Made by a program: the position numbers and the translations under genes. The notes beneath the pieces were generated by a model. The model had not been told where the DNA came from, did no database searches, and saw only the letters and a program-made list of their open reading frames with translations. 64,000 nt of DNA, taken from positions 2,656,001-2,720,000 of the forward strand of contig OZ253462.1 of the NCBI GenBank assembly GCA_965261395.1, written 5' to 3'. Source of the DNA: Candidatus Latescibacterota bacterium (GTDB lineage Bacteria; Latescibacterota; UBA2968; UBA8231). Of this stretch, positions 48,418 through 63,912 are shown piece by piece (the stretch's first letter is position 1; the number at the start of each line of letters is the position of its first letter).

Positions 48418-48616
48418 CCGCCCCCTTCCGCACCAATCCCTCCTTACCGTCCACAAGCTGTAGCGCAATCGCAACACGGCTGTTTCTTCCATACTACACC
48501 GCGTCGCCTAGCAAAGAGCCGTCGTCCAGAGTGCAAGATGATTTGAGCGATTGGTCTGCATTTTGCATAAGCCATTTAGCCGATTATCTTTGACCCCATA
48601 CCAAAGGATGCCCACC

Positions 48617-48952
48617 ATGTCCACCCCACAACCCTCTCCCGAGCTCACCACTCGCGATGTTTTGCAGCAGATCGACCATCGCCTGAGTCTCATCGAGACG
48701 GATGTGCGCGAAAACAATACCAAAATTGAGGCTAAGATCGACGCTCTTGGGGCCAAAACCGAGGCCAAGATCGTCGATCTTGACCGCAAATTTGAAGACA
48801 AGATCGACGCGCTTGACCACAAAGTCGAAGGCAAGATTGAAGTCGAAATACGCGAACTACGCCGCGAGCTTAACGGCAAATTTAACTTGGTTTTCGGTTT
48901 GGTCATCACCACTTGGCTGTCGATGATGGGTACGCTTCTCTTCAAATTGTAG
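48617..48952 (+). CDS. Coiled-coil KID-repeat protein with C-terminal TM anchor (Bdr/DUF1640-like)
   Basis: 11-aa repeats KIEAKIDALGA/KTEAKIVDLDR/KFEDKIDALDH; hydrophobic C-terminus; AAGGA RBS. Confidence 0.7.
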   Translation: MSTPQPSPELTTRDVLQQIDHRLSLIETDVRENNTKIEAKIDALGAKTEAKIVDLDRKFEDKIDALDHKVEGKIEVEIRELRRELNGKFNLVFGLVITTWLSMMGTLLFKL

Positions 48953-51578: not shown

Positions 51579-52586
51579 ATGAATCGCCCCCCCGCAGAAT
51601 CCAAACGCGTACCTGTCGCCATGCTGCGCTCCTTTACCGCTGACTGTCTCAAGGCCGCCGGGCTGCGCGCCGACCACGCCGATCAGCTAGCCGAGCTGTT
51701 GTCCAACTCCGACCTGCGCGGCGTGCGCTCGCACGGCACCCGCGCCATGGTTGGCTATTGCGGCAGCCTCCGCGACGGCACCGTCAACCCCAACCCCGAC
51801 CTGAGCGTGCTCCAAGATACCGAGACCACGGTCCTTATCGATGGCGACGGCGGCTTGGGCTACGCGCCGATGATGCTGGCCACCGAAAAGGCCATTGAGA
51901 AGGCCAAGCAATACAAGGTCGCTCTCGGCGCGGCCTGCCACCACGGGCACTATGGCTCGGCCGGGCACTACGTGCGCCGCGCCATGCAGGAGGGCTGTTG
52001 CGCCTTTTCGGTTCAGGGGAGCCATCCCAATTACTTCGGCGAAGGGGGCGGCAACAAGGGTCAGCAGTCCGCCTACTGGGGCAACCCGCCACTCAGCTTT
52101 GGCTTCCCGTCAGCAGAAGAGCCGCCGCTGGTCCTCGACGCGGCGACCTGCATCTTGGCCGACTATCATCGCGGCCCGGAATACGACGCTTTACAGGAGT
52201 TAATTCCGCCGGCTTTCTTCAAGTCGATGGGCTACACCGGCTCGGCGCTGACGCTGGGCGGAGCCTTCGTCGGCCAAAACAGCGACCGAGCCCGAGCCGT
52301 TGCCCAGCGGTGGTCCCGCGCTGGCAGTGGCGGCCTGATCATCGTCATGGACATCGGCGCGTTCGCCCCGCCCGACGCCTTCCGCGCTGGCGTTGACAAT
52401 CTCGTGCGCGGCGTCCGCGAGACTATGGAACCTGTGCGCGGGTACGACGAGGCGACCCTGCCGGGCACCATTGAGTACCGCAAGAGCGAGGAATACGCCC
52501 GCGAAGGGGTGCCGATGGCCTTGGACGAGTTGGAAAGGCTAGCGGCGTGCGGGCGCGAGTTGGGGGTTGAGGCGGAGTGGGAGTGA
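51579..52586 (+). CDS. Ldh_2 family oxidoreductase
   Basis: DLRGVRSHG, DGDGGLG, HYG, GNPP and LPG motifs. Confidence 0.82.
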   Translation: MNRPPAESKRVPVAMLRSFTADCLKAAGLRADHADQLAELLSNSDLRGVRSHGTRAMVGYCGSLRDGTVNPNPDLSVLQDTETTVLIDGDGGLGYAPMMLATEKAIEKAKQYKVALGAACHHGHYGSAGHYVRRAMQEGCCAFSVQGSHPNYFGEGGGNKGQQSAYWGNPPLSFGFPSAEEPPLVLDAATCILADYHRGPEYDALQELIPPAFFKSMGYTGSALTLGGAFVGQNSDRARAVAQRWSRAGSGGLIIVMDIGAFAPPDAFRAGVDNLVRGVRETMEPVRGYDEATLPGTIEYRKSEEYAREGVPMALDELERLAACGRELGVEAEWE

Positions 52587-52656
52587 TGTGAGGGGGCATA
52601 AGTAAGCCTTGCGGCTGCTATTTCCGTTAATATGGGTTTGGCCGCTGTAGTGCGAG

Positions 52657-53916
52657 CTAGTCGGCTCCCGACAGCAAATGCGGAATCGCCACGTGGCGCA
52701 GCCGCCCGTCCGTGCTGGGGATGCTCGACGCATCGTTTGAGGCCACCAAGCCCAACAGCAGCGGCTTATCCAGCAAGTCCTCTAGGCCGCGAAGATGGCG
52801 AAAATCGGCCGCGCTGACCCTCGCTGTCTGTTTGACTTCCACGGCGATAAACCCATCCTCGCGTTCAATCAACAAGTCCACCTCGCGCCGGTCCGCGGTG
52901 CGCAGATGGTATAGCTCAACCGGTAGTTGGGCGTTGCGGCACTGCTTGTAGATTTCCGCCACCACCGCACTTTCCAGTTCCGCGCCGTCAATATCCCCGC
53001 GCTTCCGCAAAATGCTCCGCCGGATCCCCGGATCGACAAAATGTAGCTTGCTTTGCTTGCTCAGGCGTTTTTCCGAGCTGCGATACCAAGCCGGCAACAG
53101 AATAATCTGATAGCTCAGTTCCAAGTAGCGCATAAACTGCCGCGCTGTCGCCGGAGACACATCGCTCAGCCGCGCTAGATCCGAGAAATTGACCACCTGA
53201 CCCGAACGCAGAGCCGCCGCTTGCTGGGCGCGGACAAAAGGCTCCAGCCGCCGCAACTGCGCCAGATCGCCTAAGTCGCGCTGGAGGTACATCACTTGGT
53301 AGTCCTGCAACCACGCGAACCGATCCTCGTCGTCCCACTCCCTAAGCCGCGGCATACCGCCCCAGTGGAGGAAGTACTCCCAGCGCGTTTTGGCCAGCGC
53401 GTAGGCTGCGGTAATGCGATAGGTCGCCGGACATAGCTGGTCGAGGGCGCGGACCGGATCGTCGGCAGCGAGTACCTCGACCAATCGGCTCGCACCGGTT
53501 GATGCCAGCAATTCCGGCAGGGTAAACGGGAAAAGCGCTCGCAGCGCAGCGCGTCCAGCGAGCGATTCTCGCACTTTTTCGAGCAGCAGAATTTGGCTCG
53601 ACCCCAGCAGGATATAACGCACCTGCGAATCGCGGTCATAACACGCTTTTAGGGTCTCGATGACCGCCGGTAGCTTCTGCGCTTCATCGACGATGGCACG
53701 GGGGTAGCGGGCAATCCATTCTTCCGGCCCTAGCTGCTCGTAGGCCGCTCGTTCCACAGGCGAATCCAGATTAATCACCGGATAGTCGGGAAACGCCATG
53801 CTGGCAAGGGTGGATTTCCCCACTTGGCGCGCTCCCGTAAGCACGAAGAGACGTCCGCGCTCGCGCCAATGAACATCTTGTACATCTTGTTGGATTTGGC
53901 GTATAATTTGAATCAT
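52657..53916 (-). CDS. AAA_14 ATPase with DUF4143 (wHTH and PD-(D/E)XK-like) C-terminus
   Basis: Walker A GARQVGKS, Walker B IVDEAQ, LGSS, ESLAGR, GGMP, DPG, EVDLL...AVEVK. Start set at ATG 53916. Confidence 0.88.
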   Translation of the reverse strand: MIQIIRQIQQDVQDVHWRERGRLFVLTGARQVGKSTLASMAFPDYPVINLDSPVERAAYEQLGPEEWIARYPRAIVDEAQKLPAVIETLKACYDRDSQVRYILLGSSQILLLEKVRESLAGRAALRALFPFTLPELLASTGASRLVEVLAADDPVRALDQLCPATYRITAAYALAKTRWEYFLHWGGMPRLREWDDEDRFAWLQDYQVMYLQRDLGDLAQLRRLEPFVRAQQAAALRSGQVVNFSDLARLSDVSPATARQFMRYLELSYQIILLPAWYRSSEKRLSKQSKLHFVDPGIRRSILRKRGDIDGAELESAVVAEIYKQCRNAQLPVELYHLRTADRREVDLLIEREDGFIAVEVKQTARVSAADFRHLRGLEDLLDKPLLLGLVASNDASSIPSTDGRLRHVAIPHLLSGAD

Positions 53917-53935
53917 TAATTCAAAATTTACGCCA
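53897..53935. promoter_or_regulatory. Palindromic operator-like site overlapping the ATPase start codon
   Basis: TGGCGTATAATTTGAA-TCATTAA-TTCAAAATTTACGCCA. Confidence 0.65.
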
Positions 53936-53976
53936 TTTTTAGAAAAAAACAACGACGAGCTGGTCGCATCGCCCGC

Positions 53977-55038
53977 TTACTCGATCCGCACTTCCCGCCC
54001 CTGCTCCGCCGACTCGTACAGTCCGTCGAGCATCTTCTGTACCATCAGCCCGTGCTCTCCGGGCGACAGGGTTTCCACGCCGTAGAGTACGTGATCGACG
54101 AAGTTGCGCATCTTTTGGCCGAAGGCGTCGGCCGCCGGGCCGCTGGGCATCCAGTCGGGCCGGGAGTTGACCATGTAATCGTTGGCGTCGTGGAAAAGCC
54201 CCGGCGGGTCCCAATTGGCACCGCCTTTCTCGCCCATCAGCGTGAAGTTCCACTCGTTCTTCTCGATATGGGCGGCGAAGCTAGCCTCAATACTGAGCAT
54301 CGCGCCATTGGCAAAACGGATATGCCCTACCGCTAAGTCCTCAATCGTATAGGTCTTGTAGTCCCAATTGGGCCACTGCGAGATCACGTTTGACGGCTTG
54401 TCACCGAGGTAGGTATAGGTGCTGCCACTGGCTGCCACCGGTTTGGGCGCGCCCATTGCATAGTGCGTGGTCTCCAGCATGTGGACACCGATATCGATCA
54501 GCGGCCCACCGCCTTGTAGGTCCTTGCGGCCAAAGACTCCCCAGTTGGGGATCCCCCGTCGCCGTAGGGCATGCACCCGGGCGTACAGGACCGTGCCCAG
54601 TTCGCCGTTGTCAACGATCTTCTTGATAAACTGCGTCTTCGGCTCATAGCGGTTCTGGAATCCAATGATCAGCTTTTTGCCGTTTTTCTCCGCGGCGTCG
54701 AGCATCTCTTGGCCCTCGCGTGCGTTCATGGCCAAAGGCTTCTCAACGAGGGCGTGGGCACCCGCGTCGAGCGCGGCGATGGTGCAGGGGGCGTGCAGGC
54801 CGTTGGGCGTGCAGATGCTCACGGCGTCGGGTGCGACCTGCCGGAGCATCTCCTCGTAGTCGGCGTACGCTGCGGGGATTTCGTATTCCTCGCAGCATTC
54901 TTGCGCTCTTTCGAGCGCCACATCCGCTACGGCCACCATCTCCACATCGTCCATGTTTTGGTAATAGCGCATGTGCGCCTTGGCGATGCCGCCCGCGCCG
55001 ATTAGGGCGACGCGCAGCCTGTCTTGCTTCTTAGTCAT
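53977..55038 (-). CDS. Gfo/Idh/MocA family oxidoreductase
   Basis: GAGGIA, ICTPNGLH, VEKP, GGGPLIDIGVH. Confidence 0.9.
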   Translation of the reverse strand: MTKKQDRLRVALIGAGGIAKAHMRYYQNMDDVEMVAVADVALERAQECCEEYEIPAAYADYEEMLRQVAPDAVSICTPNGLHAPCTIAALDAGAHALVEKPLAMNAREGQEMLDAAEKNGKKLIIGFQNRYEPKTQFIKKIVDNGELGTVLYARVHALRRRGIPNWGVFGRKDLQGGGPLIDIGVHMLETTHYAMGAPKPVAASGSTYTYLGDKPSNVISQWPNWDYKTYTIEDLAVGHIRFANGAMLSIEASFAAHIEKNEWNFTLMGEKGGANWDPPGLFHDANDYMVNSRPDWMPSGPAADAFGQKMRNFVDHVLYGVETLSPGEHGLMVQKMLDGLYESAEQGREVRIE

Positions 55039-55079
55039 TGATCTCCGCCCTCCGTTCGTTTGAAATTGTGGCAAGGCAC

Positions 55080-55106
55080 AAAAAAACCGGCCCGCAGACC
55101 GGTTTT
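55080..55106 (-). terminator. Intrinsic terminator
   Basis: Minus strand ACCGGTC-TGCG-GGCCGGT followed by T-tract. Confidence 0.7.
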
Positions 55107-55125
55107 CTCTCCTACAGATACCATC

Positions 55126-56028
55126 CTAGTCCGCTTGGAACTGCTCGATAAGCTGGCGCACGTCTGGGTGCCCGTCAACGCCGCGACCGGGGTGGATGAT
55201 CAGCCGATAGCGGAAGATGGCCTTGTCGCCGCTGGAGATGGTTAGGCTCTCGTCGATGTTCGCGTCGCCCTTGAAATCGTGCACCCCAAAGGGATTGGCG
55301 GTAAACAGCCCGTAGCCGCGCACGTGCCAGTAGGTCGGGTGGCGGGGGTTGTCGCGGTGATCGACGACGGTATGCCCCCACTCCTCGCCCTCGGCTACCG
55401 GCCCTGAATAATCCACCCAAGCCGCCTGCTGGCCCCAAGTAGCCTCCGCGCCTTGGCCGTTTTCAAAAATTTGTCCCGCGGAGTTTTCGATCCGTCCCGC
55501 GTCTTTGGCGTCCATGGAGGTCGGCACCCGGATCGAAAACAGCCCGCCTTCTTTGGTGTCGCCGAAGGTCACGTCGCCGTAGCGGGCACGAAACTCGCTG
55601 CGTTGGTCCACGATCCGCAACGCACCTTCAGCGCGGATGGAGATGGTGCGCCGCTCCTCCAACAGCTTCTCGCCCTCCGGCCCAAACCAATCGACGATTC
55701 CGTCGATTTGCGCTGCGCCATCGGCTGCGCCGACTACCGGCTCGCCCCGTTGCAGCATGGCCCCGTGGCCGGTGCCCTCGTCCCAGAGGTTGTGGCCGTT
55801 GACGAGGCCGTGGGCCGTGTAGACGCCGCGATGGTGGTAGTGGTCCTGCGTCTCGCCCGCGACATCTTCCATTGGATAGGCGCGGGTGAGTCCGGTGCCA
55901 CTGGGCGTCAGCACTGGGTAAAAGTAAGGGCGGCACACGTAGTGACCGTAGCGGTACTCGGTAAAAAGTTGGCCGTCGATGGCGACGACGGCCTTGCAGT
56001 CTGCGGGAATCAGCTCGATATCGATCAT
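55126..56028 (-). CDS. DUF6807/PmoA-family beta-sandwich protein
   Basis: PYFYPV, DHYHHRG, FGDTKEGG, WVDYSG, WHVRGYGLFTANPFG. Confidence 0.75.
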   Translation of the reverse strand: MIDIELIPADCKAVVAIDGQLFTEYRYGHYVCRPYFYPVLTPSGTGLTRAYPMEDVAGETQDHYHHRGVYTAHGLVNGHNLWDEGTGHGAMLQRGEPVVGAADGAAQIDGIVDWFGPEGEKLLEERRTISIRAEGALRIVDQRSEFRARYGDVTFGDTKEGGLFSIRVPTSMDAKDAGRIENSAGQIFENGQGAEATWGQQAAWVDYSGPVAEGEEWGHTVVDHRDNPRHPTYWHVRGYGLFTANPFGVHDFKGDANIDESLTISSGDKAIFRYRLIIHPGRGVDGHPDVRQLIEQFQAD

Positions 56029-56042
56029 TTACTTCCTTTCCG

Positions 56043-57383
56043 TTATGCAGCTCGGCCACAGCAGCGCTTGTACTTCTTGCCGCTGCCGCAGGAGCACGGG
56101 TCGTTGCGGCCAGGGGCCTTTTGGTGCAGGGCCGCCTTGACCGCGTCCCTTTTTCTGGTCCACTCCATCACGCCGGTGGCCGGTCGGCTGTGTCGCAACT
56201 CGTTGGCCATAAAGCGCATGTAGGGATCGACGTGCCCGAAGTACATCTTGTACCCTTTGCACAGATAGTTGAGGCCGTCCTCGCCGCGCGGGGTTTTGGT
56301 AAAGCGGTGCTTGGGGCAGCCGCCGTTGCAGGCGAAGCGGTAATCGCATTCGATGCAGTACTGGGGCAGCGTGTCCTTTTTGTCCTGCCCGAACTTGGTC
56401 TGCTGCGGGCTGGCGACCATGTCGCGGATGCTCTCCTCGTGGACATTGCCCAAGCGATAATCCGAGTAGACGAAGTGATCGCAGGAGTACAGGTCGCCGT
56501 TGTGCTCGATAATCAGTGCCTTGCCGCAGGTCTCGGCGAAGATGCACAGGCTCGCATCTTGGCCCAGCCACGAGCCGAGAGTCACGTCAAAGAGCTGCAC
56601 GAAGACTTGACCGACGTCGTTGCGCACCCACTCGTCAAAGATCGCGCAGAGGAACTTGCCGTACTGTCCCGCCCCCACCGACCACTTGGAAACCGGTGCT
56701 CGGCCCTCGTATTCGGGATCGACTAACTCCAGCCCGTCCTCGTCCGGCTCGTGCGCGATGCGCTCGACGATGGGAATAAACTGCATAAACCCCGAGCCTT
56801 CTTCGCGCAGGAAGCGGTAGATTTCGAGCGGATTATCGGCGTTGTGGTTTTGCAGCACGGTCAGGGTGTTGAATTCCACCGCGTGCTTTTTGAGCATTTG
56901 CAAACCAGCGTACACCCGGTCGTAGGTCGGCTTCTGGCCCTTGTCAACTCGGTAGTGATCGTGGTATTGGCGCGGCCCGTCGATCGACAGCCCGATTAGG
57001 AATTTGTTTTCGGCGAGGAACTCGCCCCACTCGTCGTCGAGGAGGATGCCGTTGGTTTGGAAGGCGTTGGTGATGGCCTTGCCGTTGGCGTACTGCTGCT
57101 GTAGCTCGACTGCGCGGCGGAAAAAGTCCACGCCCATCAGCGTCGGCTCGCCACCCTGCCAGGCAAAGTCCACCTGCGGCACGTCTTGGGCCTCGATGTA
57201 CTGCTGGACGTAGCGTTCGAGCGTCTCGTCGGACATGCGCCAATTTTTGCGCGCGTCCGGGTAGAGCTTTTCCTTCTCCAGATAGAAGCAGTACTTGCAG
57301 TCGATATTGCAGACCGAGCCCGAGGGCTTGGCCATCACGTGGCAAGACGCCGGAGCAGGGTTGAGTGTGGTCGCAGTTTCCAT
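56043..57383 (-). CDS. Anaerobic sulfatase maturase (radical SAM/SPASM) with SEC-C tail
   Basis: KPSGSVCNIDCKYCFY, WQGGEP, YSCDH, SPASM CxxC...C.GGCPK; C-terminal GRNDPCSCGSGKKYKRCC. Confidence 0.9.
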   Translation of the reverse strand: METATTLNPAPASCHVMAKPSGSVCNIDCKYCFYLEKEKLYPDARKNWRMSDETLERYVQQYIEAQDVPQVDFAWQGGEPTLMGVDFFRRAVELQQQYANGKAITNAFQTNGILLDDEWGEFLAENKFLIGLSIDGPRQYHDHYRVDKGQKPTYDRVYAGLQMLKKHAVEFNTLTVLQNHNADNPLEIYRFLREEGSGFMQFIPIVERIAHEPDEDGLELVDPEYEGRAPVSKWSVGAGQYGKFLCAIFDEWVRNDVGQVFVQLFDVTLGSWLGQDASLCIFAETCGKALIIEHNGDLYSCDHFVYSDYRLGNVHEESIRDMVASPQQTKFGQDKKDTLPQYCIECDYRFACNGGCPKHRFTKTPRGEDGLNYLCKGYKMYFGHVDPYMRFMANELRHSRPATGVMEWTRKRDAVKAALHQKAPGRNDPCSCGSGKKYKRCCGRAA

Positions 57384-57452
57384 CAGGGTCTATCTTGAAG
57401 TGGTGAGTATGATAGGGTTTGCCCTGCGGCAATGCAAATATAGGAAAATCTA

Positions 57453-58136
57453 ATGAGTACCATTTTCGTCGGCGACGTCCACGGCTGCGCCGCTGAGTTT
57501 GAAGCCTTCCTTGCAAAGATAAGTTACGACCAAGCCAAAGATCGCCTGTTGCTGACCGGCGATGCCTTTTCTCGCGGCCCCGACCCGCTGGCGGTGTGGC
57601 AGTTGATCCGCGAAACCGAGGCCGAAATGGTCTTGGGTAACCACGACGCCCGCCTCTTGAAGCAGCTAACGGCTCTAGCGAAGGGCCGCAAGCCCAAAGT
57701 GAAGTACCCCGACCAGGACTATACCCTCGCCCAGCTTAAGCCTGTCCAAGACGAAATGCTCGCTTGGCTCCGGCAGTGCCCGCTCTACATCGCGGAAGAC
57801 GCGTTTCTCTTAGTCCACGCCGGCATCCACCCGAAAAAGGGCTTACAAGGCACCCGTCGCAAAGAATTCCTCAAGATCCGCACGTGGCCGCCCACCGACG
57901 ATCTGGCTAGCCCGCGCTGGCACGATTTTTACAAGCCGACGCATCCCCTGCTCGTCTTTGGCCACGACGCGCCCGGCGGCTTGGTGGTCAAAAAACGCGC
58001 TGGCCGCCCCTATCTCATTGGTCTCGACTCGGGCTGCATTTATGGCGGCCAGCTCAGTGGCTATGTGCTCAAAGAAGCGCGGCTGGTGCAAGTGGAGAGC
58101 CAGCAAGCAGCGGATGTGTGGAAGCGGCTGGCTTAG
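57453..58136 (+). CDS. Metallophosphoesterase (ApaH/PrpA-like)
   Basis: GDVHG, GD...RGP, GNHD, HAG, FGH, DSGC. Confidence 0.88.
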   Translation: MSTIFVGDVHGCAAEFEAFLAKISYDQAKDRLLLTGDAFSRGPDPLAVWQLIRETEAEMVLGNHDARLLKQLTALAKGRKPKVKYPDQDYTLAQLKPVQDEMLAWLRQCPLYIAEDAFLLVHAGIHPKKGLQGTRRKEFLKIRTWPPTDDLASPRWHDFYKPTHPLLVFGHDAPGGLVVKKRAGRPYLIGLDSGCIYGGQLSGYVLKEARLVQVESQQAADVWKRLA

Positions 58137-59287
58137 GCGAGGTCGCCGCTCCAGAGCATTTGGACGAAGGTGGCTACGGGCAGGATGTCGATACCGTCGT
58201 CCGTGCGCCGAGCGCGGGGTTCGAGGCAGGCTACCACTCGTCGGCTGACGCCCGGATGATCCTTTACTAGGCTACGCAGCCCTTTCAAGTGGTTGCTGAC
58301 GATGTGATTACTCGCCTTGGCCTCGACCGCTAGCTGCATGTCGCCTAGGATAAAATCAACCTCGGTCCCACCGGCTAGACGCCAATAGCTCAGTTCGCCA
58401 TCGAACATTTGATAGTCGGCAAACGCGGTCAATTCGTGGAATACCCAGTTCTCAAATGCCTTGCCGTATAGTTCCGAGCCTATCAGCAGTTGGCCCCGGC
58501 GGGCGAGTCGATTGACTACTCCGACATCCGCAAAGTAAAACTTAGGCGCGGCAACCACTCTCCGCTTGGGACGCCTGCGGAAGGCGGGCAACCAGCGCCC
58601 GAGCAGCGCGTCTTCGAGAATCTCGTAGTAGCCCCTCGCCGTGTGACTGGTGACGCCGCACTCCCGCGCGATATTGGAGAAGTTGACCATTTCGGTATCG
58701 CCTAGAGCGGCTGAGTTCAAAAATCCGGCAAACGCAGGCAAATTGCGGACTAGCCCTTCGGCCGCGACTTCCTCCTTGAGATAGTCGGCGACATAGGCGT
58801 CGAGCAACCGTGCGGGACGGGCGTTGTCGTACATTCGGGGCAGGTAGCCGTGGTTGAGGAGGCGGGTGAGATCAAAGTCTGCGCTGAGTTCCCGCGCCGT
58901 CAGCCCGTGCAGTTGGTAGCGCACGGCCCGTCCGCCGAGCAGGTTGGCCCCTCCGCGCCGCACCTTGCGGGCACTGGAGCCGCAAAGGGCGAAACTCAAC
59001 CCTCGGTTTTCGATCAGCCAATGCACCTCGTCGAGCAGCGCAGGTACCTTCTGAATCTCATCAATGACGATCTGGCGATTGGGATCGAACTCTGTCGCCT
59101 CGATTTCTTGACGCAGAAACTCCGGGTTGGCGACGTAGCGCCGGAACTCGTCTGCCTTTAGGAGATCAAGCCACAGGCCGTCGGCGTACTGGTGTTTTAG
59201 CAGGGTGCTTTTGCCCGCCTGTCGCGGTCCCCAGAGGAAAAATGTCTCGGTACCGGACGCGGGTAGGTCCAGAACTCGTTCGTACAT
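58133..59287 (-). CDS. AAA_14 ATPase with DUF4143 C-terminus
   Basis: GPRQAGKS, IDEIQ, GSSARK, NLLGGRA, KFYFAD.G, FEN, EVDF...AVEAK. Confidence 0.9.
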   Translation of the reverse strand: MYERVLDLPASGTETFFLWGPRQAGKSTLLKHQYADGLWLDLLKADEFRRYVANPEFLRQEIEATEFDPNRQIVIDEIQKVPALLDEVHWLIENRGLSFALCGSSARKVRRGGANLLGGRAVRYQLHGLTARELSADFDLTRLLNHGYLPRMYDNARPARLLDAYVADYLKEEVAAEGLVRNLPAFAGFLNSAALGDTEMVNFSNIARECGVTSHTARGYYEILEDALLGRWLPAFRRRPKRRVVAAPKFYFADVGVVNRLARRGQLLIGSELYGKAFENWVFHELTAFADYQMFDGELSYWRLAGGTEVDFILGDMQLAVEAKASNHIVSNHLKGLRSLVKDHPGVSRRVVACLEPRARRTDDGIDILPVATFVQMLWSGDLA

Positions 59288-59303
59288 GGACCTAAAATTA
59301 GCG

Positions 59304-59365
59304 TGTAAATTTGAAATAGCTATTCAAAATTACATGATAATTTGAAGTAGTGGTTCAAAATTACA
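59304..59365. promoter_or_regulatory. Two tandem 31-bp palindromic operator-like sites upstream of the ATPase
   Basis: TGTAAATTTGAA-ATAGCTA-TTCAAAATTACA immediately followed by TGATAATTTGAA-GTAGTGG-TTCAAAATTACA. Confidence 0.7.
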
Positions 59366-59615
59366 GCATGGTCAGAAAATCCGATGTCTTTGGTGATCTG
59401 CTCGGTCCGAATAGAATCCGGGAGGCAATCACAGGAAAACGGTTCCCTCCATGTACTTCACCGCCTTCCCCTGACCTCCACCCGCCTGCCCTGAGCGCGG
59501 TGGACGGCTTGTGCGTGCATTTCCGTCCCGGCGCCGGGACAGTGCGTCCCAGCGGTAGCCCGGGCGAGCAGTACGATTGGTTCCGCTAGTAGTGCGGCGG
59601 TTGAGTAGCAATAAA

Positions 59616-61292
59616 CTAAACGGCATTGCTCCTTATCGCCTCGAGTAGGTCTTGCACCTGGCGGCGCTCTTTCCCCACCACTTCCAGCGTCTCCACCAAC
59701 CATTGGGTCCACTGTCGCCAAAATGGACTCCCCTGTGGTCCCGCCAACTGGTGGCGCTGGCCCGGGTCCAAGGCGAGTCCTTGGCGCAGGTGCCCATCCG
59801 TCCGTTCCAGTCGTTCCGACTGGTGCGCGATGCGGGCCAAGTGGAGGTGCATTTCCGCGGCGAACTCGCCATCTGGGGCCTTTTCGAGGGCGCGGTCGAA
59901 AGCCCGCTCCGCCTCGTCCCAGCGGCCGGCCTGCACATAGCCCATACCAACCGCGGCGTAAACGCGCGGGGGATAGGGATACGCCCGGTGGCCCTCGTAT
60001 AGTTCGAGTCCTTGGTCGAGCCGGCCAGCGCCGCTGTAGAAGTAGATGAGATTGCCGGCTTCGTTGACCTTTTGGCTGAGCCGCCACGCTGCTTCCAGGT
60101 GCTGGACGGCCGCCTCGATATCGTCCGCCCGGTACGCCAGATGGGTGGCCAGTTGGCGATGGGCCGAATAAGCCCAAAAGGTGGTCTGGTCGCGGTGCAG
60201 GACACTCTGATACACCGGCATGGCTTCGCCGTGGCGATTTAGCCGCGACAGGCACAGGCCGTAATCGTACCGCACGGCCTGGTTTTCAGGCATCTGTTGC
60301 AAAGCGGCTTCCAGCAGGGCCAGCGCCTGGGCGAAATCCCGGGCTCCCCGCAGCAACCGCGCTTTGCAGTACAGGGCCTCCCCATCGGCTCGATCGGTCG
60401 CCAAGCGACGGTCGGCCAAGTCGAGCAGTTTCCGCCTTAGCTCTTCACCCTGTGCCTCAAAACCGGGTTGGCGGTAGGCCAGTTCCAGTTCGGCGAGTAC
60501 TTCGAGGGACTTGGGCGCGGCTTGGGCGGCCCGTTCCAAAGCACCCACTTGGTCCGAGCCGGGCCAGCCAAAGGGGTCGTACGTGCGGCCCCATTCGAGT
60601 AGGGCGGTTAGATGTTCGGGCTCCAAGTCCAATATCTCGTTGAAATGGGCTTGGGCCGTTTCGTAGCGCATGTGGAGTCGGTCGTCCCGACCGCTTTTGA
60701 GCAGGTGGGCGACTACATGCGCGGCAAAGTCGTCGGGTAGGGCGCTGCGTTGTTGCTTGGCCATGACTAGGGCCTCCCTTCGCAAGTGCCGACGGGCTCG
60801 ATACAGCCGCTGCTTGACGCTGGCCGGGGTCGCGCCCAGATCACGTGCCACGGCCTCTAGTGGCAGCCCATCGACATAGTGGAGCAGAAAGGCGGTGGCA
60901 CTGGCTAGGGGCAATTGGTCCAGCAGGCTGGCAACGGGGCCGGGCACACCGCTCCCCAGTGTGCGGTCGTCCTCTACGGCGTCTCCGTAGCGAGCATGCG
61001 CCTCGACTCGACGCCGGTGGGCGCGCAGCATATTGAGACTGCGACGCCGCACCGCCGTGCGCAACCAATGGCCAACTTTGACCGGCTCGCGCAGTTGATC
61101 GAAGCGCTTTAAGGCCCCAATCAGGGCCTCCTGCACCGCGTCGAGGGCCTCGTCGTGCGAGCCCAAGTACCCCAGCGCATCCCGGTACAATAGGTGCTGA
61201 TAGCGCCGGACGAGCGCCTCAAAGGCGGCCAAGTCCCCTGCGGCTGCGGCTTGGGCCAGCGAGCCATCGCCGATTTCTGCGGTATCTTTCAT
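59616..61292 (-). CDS. ECF sigma factor with long C-terminal TPR extension
   Basis: GDLAAFEALVRRY, DAVQEA, WLR and VKQRLYRAR in the first ~175 aa; TPR-like helices after. Confidence 0.82.
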   Translation of the reverse strand: MKDTAEIGDGSLAQAAAAGDLAAFEALVRRYQHLLYRDALGYLGSHDEALDAVQEALIGALKRFDQLREPVKVGHWLRTAVRRRSLNMLRAHRRRVEAHARYGDAVEDDRTLGSGVPGPVASLLDQLPLASATAFLLHYVDGLPLEAVARDLGATPASVKQRLYRARRHLRREALVMAKQQRSALPDDFAAHVVAHLLKSGRDDRLHMRYETAQAHFNEILDLEPEHLTALLEWGRTYDPFGWPGSDQVGALERAAQAAPKSLEVLAELELAYRQPGFEAQGEELRRKLLDLADRRLATDRADGEALYCKARLLRGARDFAQALALLEAALQQMPENQAVRYDYGLCLSRLNRHGEAMPVYQSVLHRDQTTFWAYSAHRQLATHLAYRADDIEAAVQHLEAAWRLSQKVNEAGNLIYFYSGAGRLDQGLELYEGHRAYPYPPRVYAAVGMGYVQAGRWDEAERAFDRALEKAPDGEFAAEMHLHLARIAHQSERLERTDGHLRQGLALDPGQRHQLAGPQGSPFWRQWTQWLVETLEVVGKERRQVQDLLEAIRSNAV

Positions 61293-61406: not shown

Positions 61407-61435
61407 TTGCTCTTGACCTGTTTGTGGTCTATATT
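61407..61435 (+). promoter_or_regulatory. Sigma70 promoter/operator of the TA operon
   Basis: TTGCTC-17 nt-TATATT with GACC-N7-GGTC palindrome in the spacer; AAGGAGGT RBS follows. Confidence 0.55.
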
Positions 61436-61456
61436 TGGTCCGAAAAGGAGGTGCCC

Positions 61457-61732
61457 ATGAAACTGTCCAGCCAGATCAAGCCGATTAGCTACCTCAAGGC
61501 TCACGCTGCTGAGATCGTGCGCACACTTGGGGACCAACAAGAGCCCTTGATCATCACCCAGAATGGCGAAGCCAAGGTGGTCATGCAGGATATCGACAGC
61601 TACGAGCAGATGCAGGAAACGGTTGCATTGCTCAAGATCCTCGCGCTGGGTAGCCGCCAGATCGAAGCAGGTCAGGTGCAACCGGCCGTCGATGTCGTCG
61701 CACAGCTTCGGGAGCGGCGACGGGATCGCTGA
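61457..61732 (+). CDS. Phd/YefM family antitoxin
   Basis: IKPISYLKAHAAEIV...PLIITQNGEAKVV; strong RBS. Confidence 0.92.
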   Translation: MKLSSQIKPISYLKAHAAEIVRTLGDQQEPLIITQNGEAKVVMQDIDSYEQMQETVALLKILALGSRQIEAGQVQPAVDVVAQLRERRRDR

Positions 61733-61740
61733 CGGCTTTC

Positions 61741-62058
61741 TTGGTTCAGTTGACCGATGACGCGACGCGCGACTTGGAGGAAATCTGCGATTACATCGAT
61801 CGGCATGATGAACCGGGTCGAGCGGATTATGTGCTGGAGCAGATTGAAAAGGCCTTCAGCCGCCTATCCGAGTATCCCGAGCGTGGGAACTATCCGACGG
61901 AATTGCTGGACATTGGGATTCGGGAATATCGGGAGATCTTCTTCAGGCCCTACCGCATCATCTATCGGGTGATGGAAAATAACGTCTATGTGCTCTTGAT
62001 CGCCGATGAGCGGCGCGACATGCAGACGTTGCTACAGCGGCGCTTGCTGCGGGCATAA
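61741..62058 (+). CDS. RelE/ParE family toxin
   Basis: LTDDATRDLEEI, YPERG, YRE, PYRIIYRV, D.RRDM. The expected start at 61732 reads ACG. Confidence 0.88.
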   Translation: MVQLTDDATRDLEEICDYIDRHDEPGRADYVLEQIEKAFSRLSEYPERGNYPTELLDIGIREYREIFFRPYRIIYRVMENNVYVLLIADERRDMQTLLQRRLLRA

Positions 62059-62088
62059 GACCCATTCTCTCCGGCAGAATCGCTTACC

Positions 62089-62382
62089 TCAAACAGGTTG
62101 AGGCTCGTAGCGCTCGACTTCGATTTCATCCTGGCGTGCTTGCGCCTGCGCGATATCGTAGGCCGCTTGTAGTCGTATCCAAGTCTCCGTCGTAGAGCCG
62201 AAGGCTTTCGCGAGGCGGATCGCCATGTCGGCCGACATGCGGGCGCGACAATTCACCAGATTCGAGAGGGCTTGGCGACTGACGCCGAGGCTCCTCGCGC
62301 CTTCGGTGACGTTGAGGCCGAGCGGCTCCAGACAGGACACGCGCACGGCCTTGCCAGGATGCGGCGGGTTCTTCATGGGCAT
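62089..62382 (-). CDS. higA: HigA family addiction-module antitoxin (HTH)
   Basis: MKNPPHPG, GVSRQALSNLVN, MAIRLAKAFG, W.RLQ..YD. Confidence 0.9.
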   Translation of the reverse strand: MPMKNPPHPGKAVRVSCLEPLGLNVTEGARSLGVSRQALSNLVNCRARMSADMAIRLAKAFGSTTETWIRLQAAYDIAQAQARQDEIEVERYEPQPV

Positions 62383-62553: not shown

Positions 62554-63912
62554 CTACTTAGGCACATTAGGCACAAGCGGCTCATAGGTCGCGCTCTCGG
62601 CGTTCCATTTTAGGGTGACCGAGCAACGAGGGCCGTTGCGCTGCTTGTCGATGATGATCTCGGCAAGGCTTTCGAGGCTCTCGCCGTCCGGCGACGTGAG
62701 CCCATACATGTCTGGGCGGTAAATGAACATCACCATGTCGGCAGCTTGCTCGACCCCCTCCGGCAAATCCGATAGCTGCGGTCTCGGATCCGTACGGCTT
62801 TCCACTGCACACGATAGCTGCACCAGCACCAGCACCGGTATGTCCAATTCCTTAGCTAGGTTCTTTAGCCTACGCAACATATGCGATATTTCCTGCTCGC
62901 GGCTCGCAGTCTTGGTCTGTCCACTCATCAATTGTAAATAGTCCACCACGACCATGCCGATACCGTGTTCCCGGTGCAGCCGCCTCGCCTTGGCCCGGGC
63001 TTCGAGCTCCGAGATGGCAGGGGTGTCGTCGATGAAGATAGGTGCTTGTGCCAAGCGGTCGATATTGCGCGTCAGGTGCATCCAGTCGTCGTCGCTTAGT
63101 TGGCCCGTGCATAGCTTGTGCAGGTCGACTTGCGTCTCGGCACTGAGCAGACGCCGGGCGAGCTGCATCCTGGACATTTTTGGGCTGAAGATCACCACCC
63201 CGACCCCGGCATCTACGGCCGCGTTGCGCGCCAAGGTTAGCGCCAGCGCCGTCTTGCCGACGCTCGGCTGTGCCGCCAGCACGATCAGGTCGCCCTTTTG
63301 AAGGCCGGAGGTCTGCGCGTTGAGATCGGCAAACCCGGTCTCGACCGCAGAGACCGTGACGCCCCTGTTGTGGATGCGCTCAATCTGTAAGAGCGTGTTG
63401 CCCATCACCGTCTCTAGGGGTTCCACCCCGTCGCCAATCTGGTTTTCGATAATAGTAAAAAGCCGCTGCTCGGCACGGTTGATTAGCTCTAGTACGTCCC
63501 CGCTGCCTTTGTAGGATTGTTCTATGATGTCGCTGGCGGTCTCGATGAGCAGGCGGCTGAGTGCCTTTTCTAAGACGATTCGCGCGTGGACGTCGATGTT
63601 GGCAGGGGTGGCGACCTTGGCGACTAGCTCGGCCAGATAGACGGCTCCACCGACGTCATTGAGTTGGTCGCGGTCCTTGAGTTCTTCGGCCAAGGTGAAC
63701 TGATCGACGGCCACGCCGCGTTCGTAGAGGCTGAGCATGACCTCGAAGATCCGGGTGTGCGAAGCGTCGTAAAAGCAGATTGGATCGAGGATTTCGACGG
63801 CATGGCCGATGGCGCGTTGTTCGAGCATCATCGCTCCTAACACAGCCTGCTCCATCTCGATGGCCTGCGGCGGCGTGCGCTCTGGGTGCTGAGTATCAAC
63901 AGTTGCGATCAT
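62554..63912 (-). CDS. dnaB: DnaB-like replicative helicase with degenerate catalytic motifs
   Basis: PPQA.E.EQAVLG N-domain, PSVGKT, IDDTP, VDYLQL and KQRNGP present; FSLEM, SQLSR and DLRESG are altered. Confidence 0.8.
   Translation of the reverse strand: MIATVDTQHPERTPPQAIEMEQAVLGAMMLEQRAIGHAVEILDPICFYDASHTRIFEVMLSLYERGVAVDQFTLAEELKDRDQLNDVGGAVYLAELVAKVATPANIDVHARIVLEKALSRLLIETASDIIEQSYKGSGDVLELINRAEQRLFTIIENQIGDGVEPLETVMGNTLLQIERIHNRGVTVSAVETGFADLNAQTSGLQKGDLIVLAAQPSVGKTALALTLARNAAVDAGVGVVIFSPKMSRMQLARRLLSAETQVDLHKLCTGQLSDDDWMHLTRNIDRLAQAPIFIDDTPAISELEARAKARRLHREHGIGMVVVDYLQLMSGQTKTASREQEISHMLRRLKNLAKELDIPVLVLVQLSCAVESRTDPRPQLSDLPEGVEQAADMVMFIYRPDMYGLTSPDGESLESLAEIIIDKQRNGPRCSVTLKWNAESATYEPLVPNVPK

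Follow-up and report, generated by a model that had tools for sequence, protein, structure and literature searches.

The PDC-S01 type of protein (COG1373), in which an AAA_14 ATPase domain (PF13173) is combined with DUF4143 (PF13635), has been described as a phage-defence candidate that ranks fourth in frequency among such systems in prokaryotes (PMC12988326), and it is also catalogued in PMC13356809. DUF4143 itself was given with function unknown (PMC3424549). One PDC-S01 representative expressed from a vector promoter did not protect against T7, T5 or T4 (10.1101/2024.09.26.614923), and PDC-S01 is not named in the main text of Payne et al. (10.1101/2024.01.29.577857). A literature search, with subscription journals outside its scope, found no description of upstream sites, self-regulation or a residue-base code for PDC-S01, and no PDC-S01 substrate. 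AbiEi/Rv2827c provides a case in which one or two sets of inverted repeats let a defence-linked protein repress its own promoter (PMC7319586), and each haloarchaeal Orc1/Cdc6 paralogue has boxes of its own next to it (PMC3528665). Restriction-modification genes without a recombinase have been found flanked by long direct repeats (PMC2853133). Here we analysed two PDC-S01 genes (gene 1 and gene 2) and the palindromic sites at their starts (site 1 and site 2) in a 64,000-nt stretch of contig OZ253462.1, hereafter the window; genome scans covered all 6.55 Mb. The two genes are probably separate solo cassettes, in each of which the encoded protein likely uses a predicted winged helix to bind its own palindromic site and likely acts as the repressor of its own gene.

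Both proteins matched AAA_14 and DUF4143 above the Pfam cut-offs and the PDC-S01 model of PADLOC (E = 1.2e-79 and 8.1e-51), and searches of NCBIfam and of PDB sequences returned no match. Their identity was 27% over 375 columns, in agreement with an earlier note on this DNA that called them distantly alike. That note had drawn attention to three copies of the palindrome TTTGAA-N7-TTCAAA. Exact copies were indeed found at 53907-53925, 59310-59328 and 59341-59359, and the first contains, as claimed, the likely start codon of gene 1 (ATG at 53914-53916, a start inferred from the N-terminus common to its relatives). Three matches with at most one mismatch compare with 0.08 expected by chance, and none of 100 shuffles reached three. 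Other details had to be corrected. The tandem units before gene 2, described as exact, have a period of exactly 31 bp but are identical at no more than 25 of 31 bases; the corresponding numbers for copy 1 against the two units are 19 and 21 of 31, and the units are separated from the ATG of gene 2 by 16 nt instead of 17. The register was also misdrawn, as site 1 is a 37-bp palindrome and the core of site 2 is centred between the two claimed units (Table 1). As a family motif the claimed register did not hold, being present with at most one mismatch in only 21 of 80 gene-2 orthologues.

The site of gene 2 was defined from these 80 orthologues, which come from many phyla; 79 had enough flanking sequence and 70 were used in the promoter and end tests. 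The closest ones (92-96% identity) belong to Candidatus Latescibacterota. The orthologues keep a 28-bp palindrome that is centred on TCATGA, covers an extended -10-like box and leaves about 3 nt to the ATG. Its consensus was matched at 20 or more positions in 73 of the 79 upstream regions and in none of 1617 control windows; because the consensus was drawn from the same loci, the control weighs more than the match rate. The symmetry of the core peaks at one centre, where on average 11.1 of 14 pairs are symmetric; when the centre is shifted, this falls to 2.1-5.8. In the window, the best core lies at the junction of the two units drawn in the earlier note, and a weaker core occupies the position used by the orthologues. 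The half-sites of site 2 abut or stand 3 bp apart, and weaker half-sites upstream and across the start codon give the 31-bp period. The number of units differs among relatives. The core pattern occurred once, at the gene, in seven of ten genomes, and was not found in the other three.

A site belonging to a global regulator of the host might likewise be an AT-rich spaced palindrome over a promoter-like region. However, the same site is found in hosts of many phyla with one copy per genome, and different sites accompany the paralogues of one host. A scan of the whole genome, as proposed in the earlier note, gave four exact matches to TTTGAA-N7-TTCAAA, the fourth within an unrelated ORF. No regulon emerged, there being no copies before unrelated genes; the global regulator is thus largely refuted and scarcely credible.

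The two arms of the gene-2 core change together (22/3/2/30). When protein columns were ranked for tracking the arm base pair in a discovery set (73 of 80 loci kept, 64 scored), residue 215 came first of 384. Pro215 was present with all 33 T..A sites and with one of the 31 C..G sites, 26 of which had His instead, and the switch recurs in separate clades. We then used held-out loci from three sampled phyla, in which 16, 28 and 15 of 301 genomes each matched; these gave 63 loci. New, full-length loci numbered 52, and a core could be recognised in 34 of them, with column 215 in first place once more. His was accompanied by C..G in all eight cases and Pro by T..A in 12 of 15 (the other three were half matches), and 11 loci with other residues were mixed. 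The combined set contained nine independent pairs, of which 6.8 changed in the same way and none in the opposite way (median p = 0.016). Gene 2 of the window encodes His215 and its best core carries C..G at the corresponding positions. Such covariation of site 2 with a single residue of a predicted DNA-reading helix suggests that each protein likely binds, and thereby represses, its own gene, and that the specificity of the gene-2 site is likely set by the encoded protein. The earlier note had offered a family-specific DNA site as one of its readings. Subfamily conservation and the covariation at residue 215 bear it out, the gene's own predicted winged helix being the most likely reader.

In the structural model of the gene 2 protein (pLDDT 93.8), residue 215 stands at the start of helix 214-226, which follows helix 203-210 and which we read as the recognition helix of the predicted winged helix. 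Residues 1-263 matched the archaeal AAA+/winged-helix ATPases PAB2304 (2QEN; Z 15.1) and SSO1545 (2FNA; Z 14.8), the best alignment (Z 15.1) having an rmsd of 3.1 over 241 aligned residues. The C-terminal domain is predicted to have a PD-(D/E)XK nuclease fold, aligning with McrC (Z 10.0, rmsd 3.8, 123 aligned) and Can2 (Z 9.7, rmsd 2.9, 109 aligned); Foldseek alone gave no match for this domain at an E-value of 0.001 or better. E279 and K324 are invariant, and E309, D311 and E322 are each present in at least 90% of 82 alignment rows. The Walker and arginine-finger residues are conserved as well.

The extended -10 pattern TGnTAnnnT was found at -16 to -8 inside the core in 52 of 70 orthologue loci (25 of 70 on the mirror strand), and a Shine-Dalgarno-like word in none of the 70. 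The two observations together suggest a leaderless promoter covered by site 2. Short contigs in RNA runs overlie parts of both genes (4 of 22 listed runs) and are uninformative on transcription, its level or its start. We also considered that the palindromes act as RNA hairpins, either as a terminator or as a stem hiding the start codon, with no need of a protein. Both regions fold better than shuffled sequences (z from -2.75 to -6.3), and site 1 spans the ATG and has a T run behind it on the plus strand. However, any palindrome folds, and a hairpin would not track a helix residue. The orthologue core overlaps the -10-like box and stops about 3 nt short of the ATG, so that it would be missing from a leaderless message. 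For positions 52000-60000, Rfam gave no match at E-values up to 1. We regard RNA hairpins as a very unlikely explanation.

Site 1 was compared with the loci of gene 1 relatives. The outer arms GGCGTA...TACGCC were present in all 19 scored loci of the set L112-L131 (L128 was not scored). Relatives at 48-94% identity keep these arms and several have tandem units, and the inner arms vary, drifting even where the gene is intact. A gene-1 matrix was built from nine sites of this group, site 1 itself being among the training sequences; on this matrix site 1 scored 41.1, the single top site of the genome, and site 2 reached at best 4.4. On the gene-2 matrix, site 1 had a pair score of 12.8, which is less than that of the top unrelated site of the genome (15.0), and site 2 scored 32.1 and 24.6. 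As the inner arms of site 1 vary and the cross-matrix scores are low, the 12 bases shared by the two sites represent the less conserved part of site 1, and we read TTTGAA-N7-TTCAAA as a common AT-rich inner arm rather than a joint operator.

The earlier note had proposed one operator shared by the two genes, which would cross-repress each other as an undescribed two-gene system. Only these two of the 11 full-length paralogues of the genome have the exact inner motif, they lie 5.4 kb apart, and the half-sites of site 1 retain weak scores on the gene-2 matrix (7.8 and 8.3). Nevertheless, each subfamily keeps its own, different site, neither site scores on the matrix of the other, and the genes occur separately among relatives. 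A shared operator is therefore quite improbable, and cross-repression was not supported. In this genome, weak cross-binding of the proteins to both sites may still take place.

Table 1 Positions and properties of the genes and sites in the window.
Feature	Position	Strand	Details
Gene 1, AAA_14/DUF4143 ATPase-nuclease (PDC-S01)	52657-53916	-	419 aa; Pfam, PADLOC
Site 1, likely operator of gene 1	53898-53934		37-bp palindrome; outer arms GGCGTA/TACGCC, AT-rich inner arms, 7-nt centre holding ATG
Gene 2, AAA_14/DUF4143 ATPase-nuclease (PDC-S01)	58133-59287	-	384 aa; Pfam, PADLOC
Site 2, likely operator array of gene 2	59290-59365		Five alternating half-sites, 31-bp period
Half-site	59290-59303		Matrix score 7.3
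Half-site	59304-59317		Matrix score 13.6
Half-site	59321-59334		Matrix score 11.0
Half-site	59335-59348		Matrix score 22.3
Half-site	59352-59365		Matrix score 9.8
Best 28-bp core palindrome of site 2	59321-59348		Top pair score of the genome (33.2); 15.5 for the next unrelated site
Weaker core of site 2, position used by orthologues	59290-59317		Pair score 20.9; TAATTT -10-like hexamer 7 nt before ATG
Terminator-like hairpin	53952-53967	-	3' of the upstream oxidoreductase gene, which it sets apart from gene 1; consensus scan only

The source genome has 13 DUF4143 matches, of which 11 are full length. A palindrome of its own with a score of at least 10 was found at 8 of the 11 paralogues, compared with 12 of 400 control gene starts, which were taken by a rough ORF rule, and 4 of 182 AT-rich control starts. 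The sequence of the palindrome differs for each paralogue. The exact motif of the earlier note, which had proposed to test its enrichment at DUF4143 gene starts, stands at genes 1 and 2 but not at the other nine. Among congeners, no DUF4143 match was found in four genomes (G014-G017, of which G017 is 58% complete), and 10-29 were found in each of the 14 others searched. Elsewhere in the source genome (G000:C1:2279894-2280194, outside the window) there is an internally deleted remnant of a gene of another DUF4143 subfamily, which keeps its upstream direct repeats, its first codons and its last 209 nt.

The region was compared in 29 of 30 congeners. At site 1, the gene was present in seven, the palindrome alone in eight, and a half-site with other DNA in one; eight were empty, one was deleted and four were not syntenic. 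At site 2, 11 congeners had an intact gene, two a broken gene, seven the array only and four neither, one was not covered and four were not syntenic. Both genes occurred together in five genomes (in one of them on a contig fragment), gene 1 alone in two and intact gene 2 alone in six. Genes 1 and 2 come and go independently and are single-gene systems. The allele states are scattered on the core-gene tree, and the tree cannot order gains and losses. Filled and deleted forms of site 2 coexist in two sequencing runs, possibly from different strains or species. The comparison of empty and filled sites, another proposal of the earlier note, recovered filled, array-only and empty states. Because the last codons of gene 2, which encode a conserved family motif, are retained in the array-only alleles, these are deletion remnants, and their interpretation as pre-insertion sites was rejected. 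On the side of these last codons, the stop codon of gene 2 overlaps that of a convergent metallophosphoesterase gene (58133-58136), which bounds the deletions. Gene 1 had one relative in metagenomes and only matches below 60% identity on plasmids, and a search with gene 2 found no relative in viral contigs.

Several results weigh against self-repression by each protein as the explanation of these loci. In the discovery set alone there were only five independent pairs (p = 0.06-0.125), the combined pair test used a FastTree tree, and 18 of the 52 held-out loci were left out of the test because no core could be recognised in them. Three of the 11 paralogues scored below 10, one of them having three short repeated boxes instead of a palindrome. 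Unlike most orthologues, the weaker core of the window lacks the TG of the extended -10, and a consensus promoter scan of the window region found no sense-strand promoter and only outward-facing promoter-like sites. Finally, in six gene-less alleles with two units, none of 32 positions in the array arms vary, compared with 26 of 69 fourfold sites in the gene next door, 5 of 13 bases in the flanks and 4 of 14 in the spacers (the one-unit G010 was left out, and the kin are not independent). The outer arms of site 1 behave similarly in six gene-less alleles (0 of 12 vary versus 30 of 65; three damaged alleles of the nine gene-less ones were left out). Five array-only genomes were tested for a paralogue and had none above 44% identity. 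Self-repression alone does not explain arms that stay unchanged after the loss of gene 2.

Unchanged arms in genomes that have lost gene 2 would be expected if the array worked in cis, additionally or even chiefly, as a site of recombination or landing, beside which the bound protein nicks or cuts, leading to loss, regain and cargo capture. Two congeners carry cargo between array-bearing direct repeats. In G144 (L133), an AbiEi/AbiEii pair lies between 71-bp direct repeats that each hold one array unit, and in G146 (L149), a 6-kb cargo lies between 85-bp repeats that hold the whole array, the second repeat being preceded by a copy of the 3′ end of gene 2. Homology among relatives often stops at the outer edge of the array, and the coexistence of filled and deleted alleles in the same sequencing runs fits this idea as well. 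On the other hand, none of 70 loci had a 3′ half-site near the stop codon, and flanking direct and inverted repeats were at control level. Direct repeats of the kind left by target-site duplication were likewise at control level in the 70 loci and none was evident at the inspected empty sites. No transposon-type end was found in these loci. Cassettes of other subfamilies are mostly cleanly absent from the source genome, without an orphan site; four genomes lost gene 2 together with the array, and damage is seen in three of the nine site-1 alleles that lack the gene. Both the unchanged arms and the array-flanked cargo may go back to exchange with filled alleles or to conversion between tandem units. 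We therefore consider a recombination site unlikely. An equally doubtful version is that the array serves as docking site and operator and stays under selection after gene loss, the ATPase-nuclease, attached by a helix that one residue can switch, cutting beside it and so driving loss, return and capture of defence cargo without a recombinase.

Both spots also host other cargo, including an AbiE pair. A 1526-aa ORF without a Pfam match is inserted beside gene 1 at site 1 of G006 (L141:8031-12611), and L149 has ORFs of 719 aa and 569 aa, also without Pfam matches. At site 1 of G004 (L136), half of the palindrome is found together with a CTAACCA tandem repeat in an insert of 542 nt. In the window, a gene for an ECF-type sigma factor fused to TPR repeats lies directly beyond the array (59616-61292). 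It is followed by a Phd/ParE toxin-antitoxin pair and a lone HTH_3 gene (61424-62382); HTH_3 remnants flank the array in several relatives. A DnaB-like helicase gene (62554-63912) adjoins the toxin-antitoxin genes. A small ORF at 48551-48952 encodes repeated coiled-coil-like units and a hydrophobic C-terminus.

In the separate self-repressing cassettes that we prefer, each protein would sit on its own site as two or more protomers over alternating half-sites and would block its own promoter. Such repression might limit the amount of intact nuclease once the gene has moved to a new host, and the most likely putative role of the ATPase-nuclease is action against invading DNA. The DNA site and the predicted one-residue switch offer a direct biochemical handle on PDC-S01, as the known sequence allows assays of binding, ATP dependence and cleavage as well as tests from the native promoter. 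Private sites would explain how genomes hold 10-29 family matches without cross-talk, and may represent a large set of potentially orthogonal repressor-operator pairs. The intact orphan arrays hint at a possible second role in gene turnover. If the docking version were true, PDC-S01 would be an element of gene turnover that is programmed by its site, and not an enzyme of phage defence.

Compared with known systems, the arrangement in G144 and G146 resembles the insertion of restriction-modification genes. Here, however, what is repeated is the site of the gene itself, cargo between such repeats was seen in only 2 of 29 relatives, and the gene has no flanking duplication. At ORB origins, boxes flank an AT-rich unwinding element. 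The array could be a loading site of ORB type, at which an Orc1/Cdc6-type initiator would start local replication or amplification. The predicted AAA+ plus winged-helix fold is similar, the top Foldseek match was an Aeropyrum ORC1 bound to DNA, and the adjacent boxes of the haloarchaeal orc/cdc6 paralogues (PMC3528665) are comparable. However, the TM-score of that match was 0.29, and the Orc1/Cdc6-type 2QBY aligned less well (Z 9.2, rmsd 6.9, 231 aligned) than the SSO1545-type ATPases. The gene 2 protein has in addition a predicted nuclease domain at the C-terminus, and its half-sites are packed on the gene start, abutting without an unwinding element between them. An ORB-like role is thus highly improbable. 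SSO1545 and PAB2304 (2FNA, 2QEN) are the closest solved folds for residues 1-263, but at 16-18% identity, and the accessible literature naming SSO1545 yielded no DNA site. AbiEi is similar in that inverted repeats lie over the gene's own promoter (here judged from consensus matches to the extended -10 in the core of 52 of 70 orthologues, weaker in the window). In AbiEi systems a separate antitoxin regulates the toxin, whereas here the predicted reader, the ATPase and the nuclease fold would be combined in one chain. In working the two genes would resemble AbiEi and in build Orc1 with its boxes, and they are members of neither. With PDC-S01 they share the single-gene organization and the fusion of an ATPase to a PD-(D/E)XK domain (PMC12988326). 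The family is thus already catalogued, and what appears to be new, judging from the literature search, is the private palindromic sites and, for gene 2, the tracking of a base pair by a single residue.

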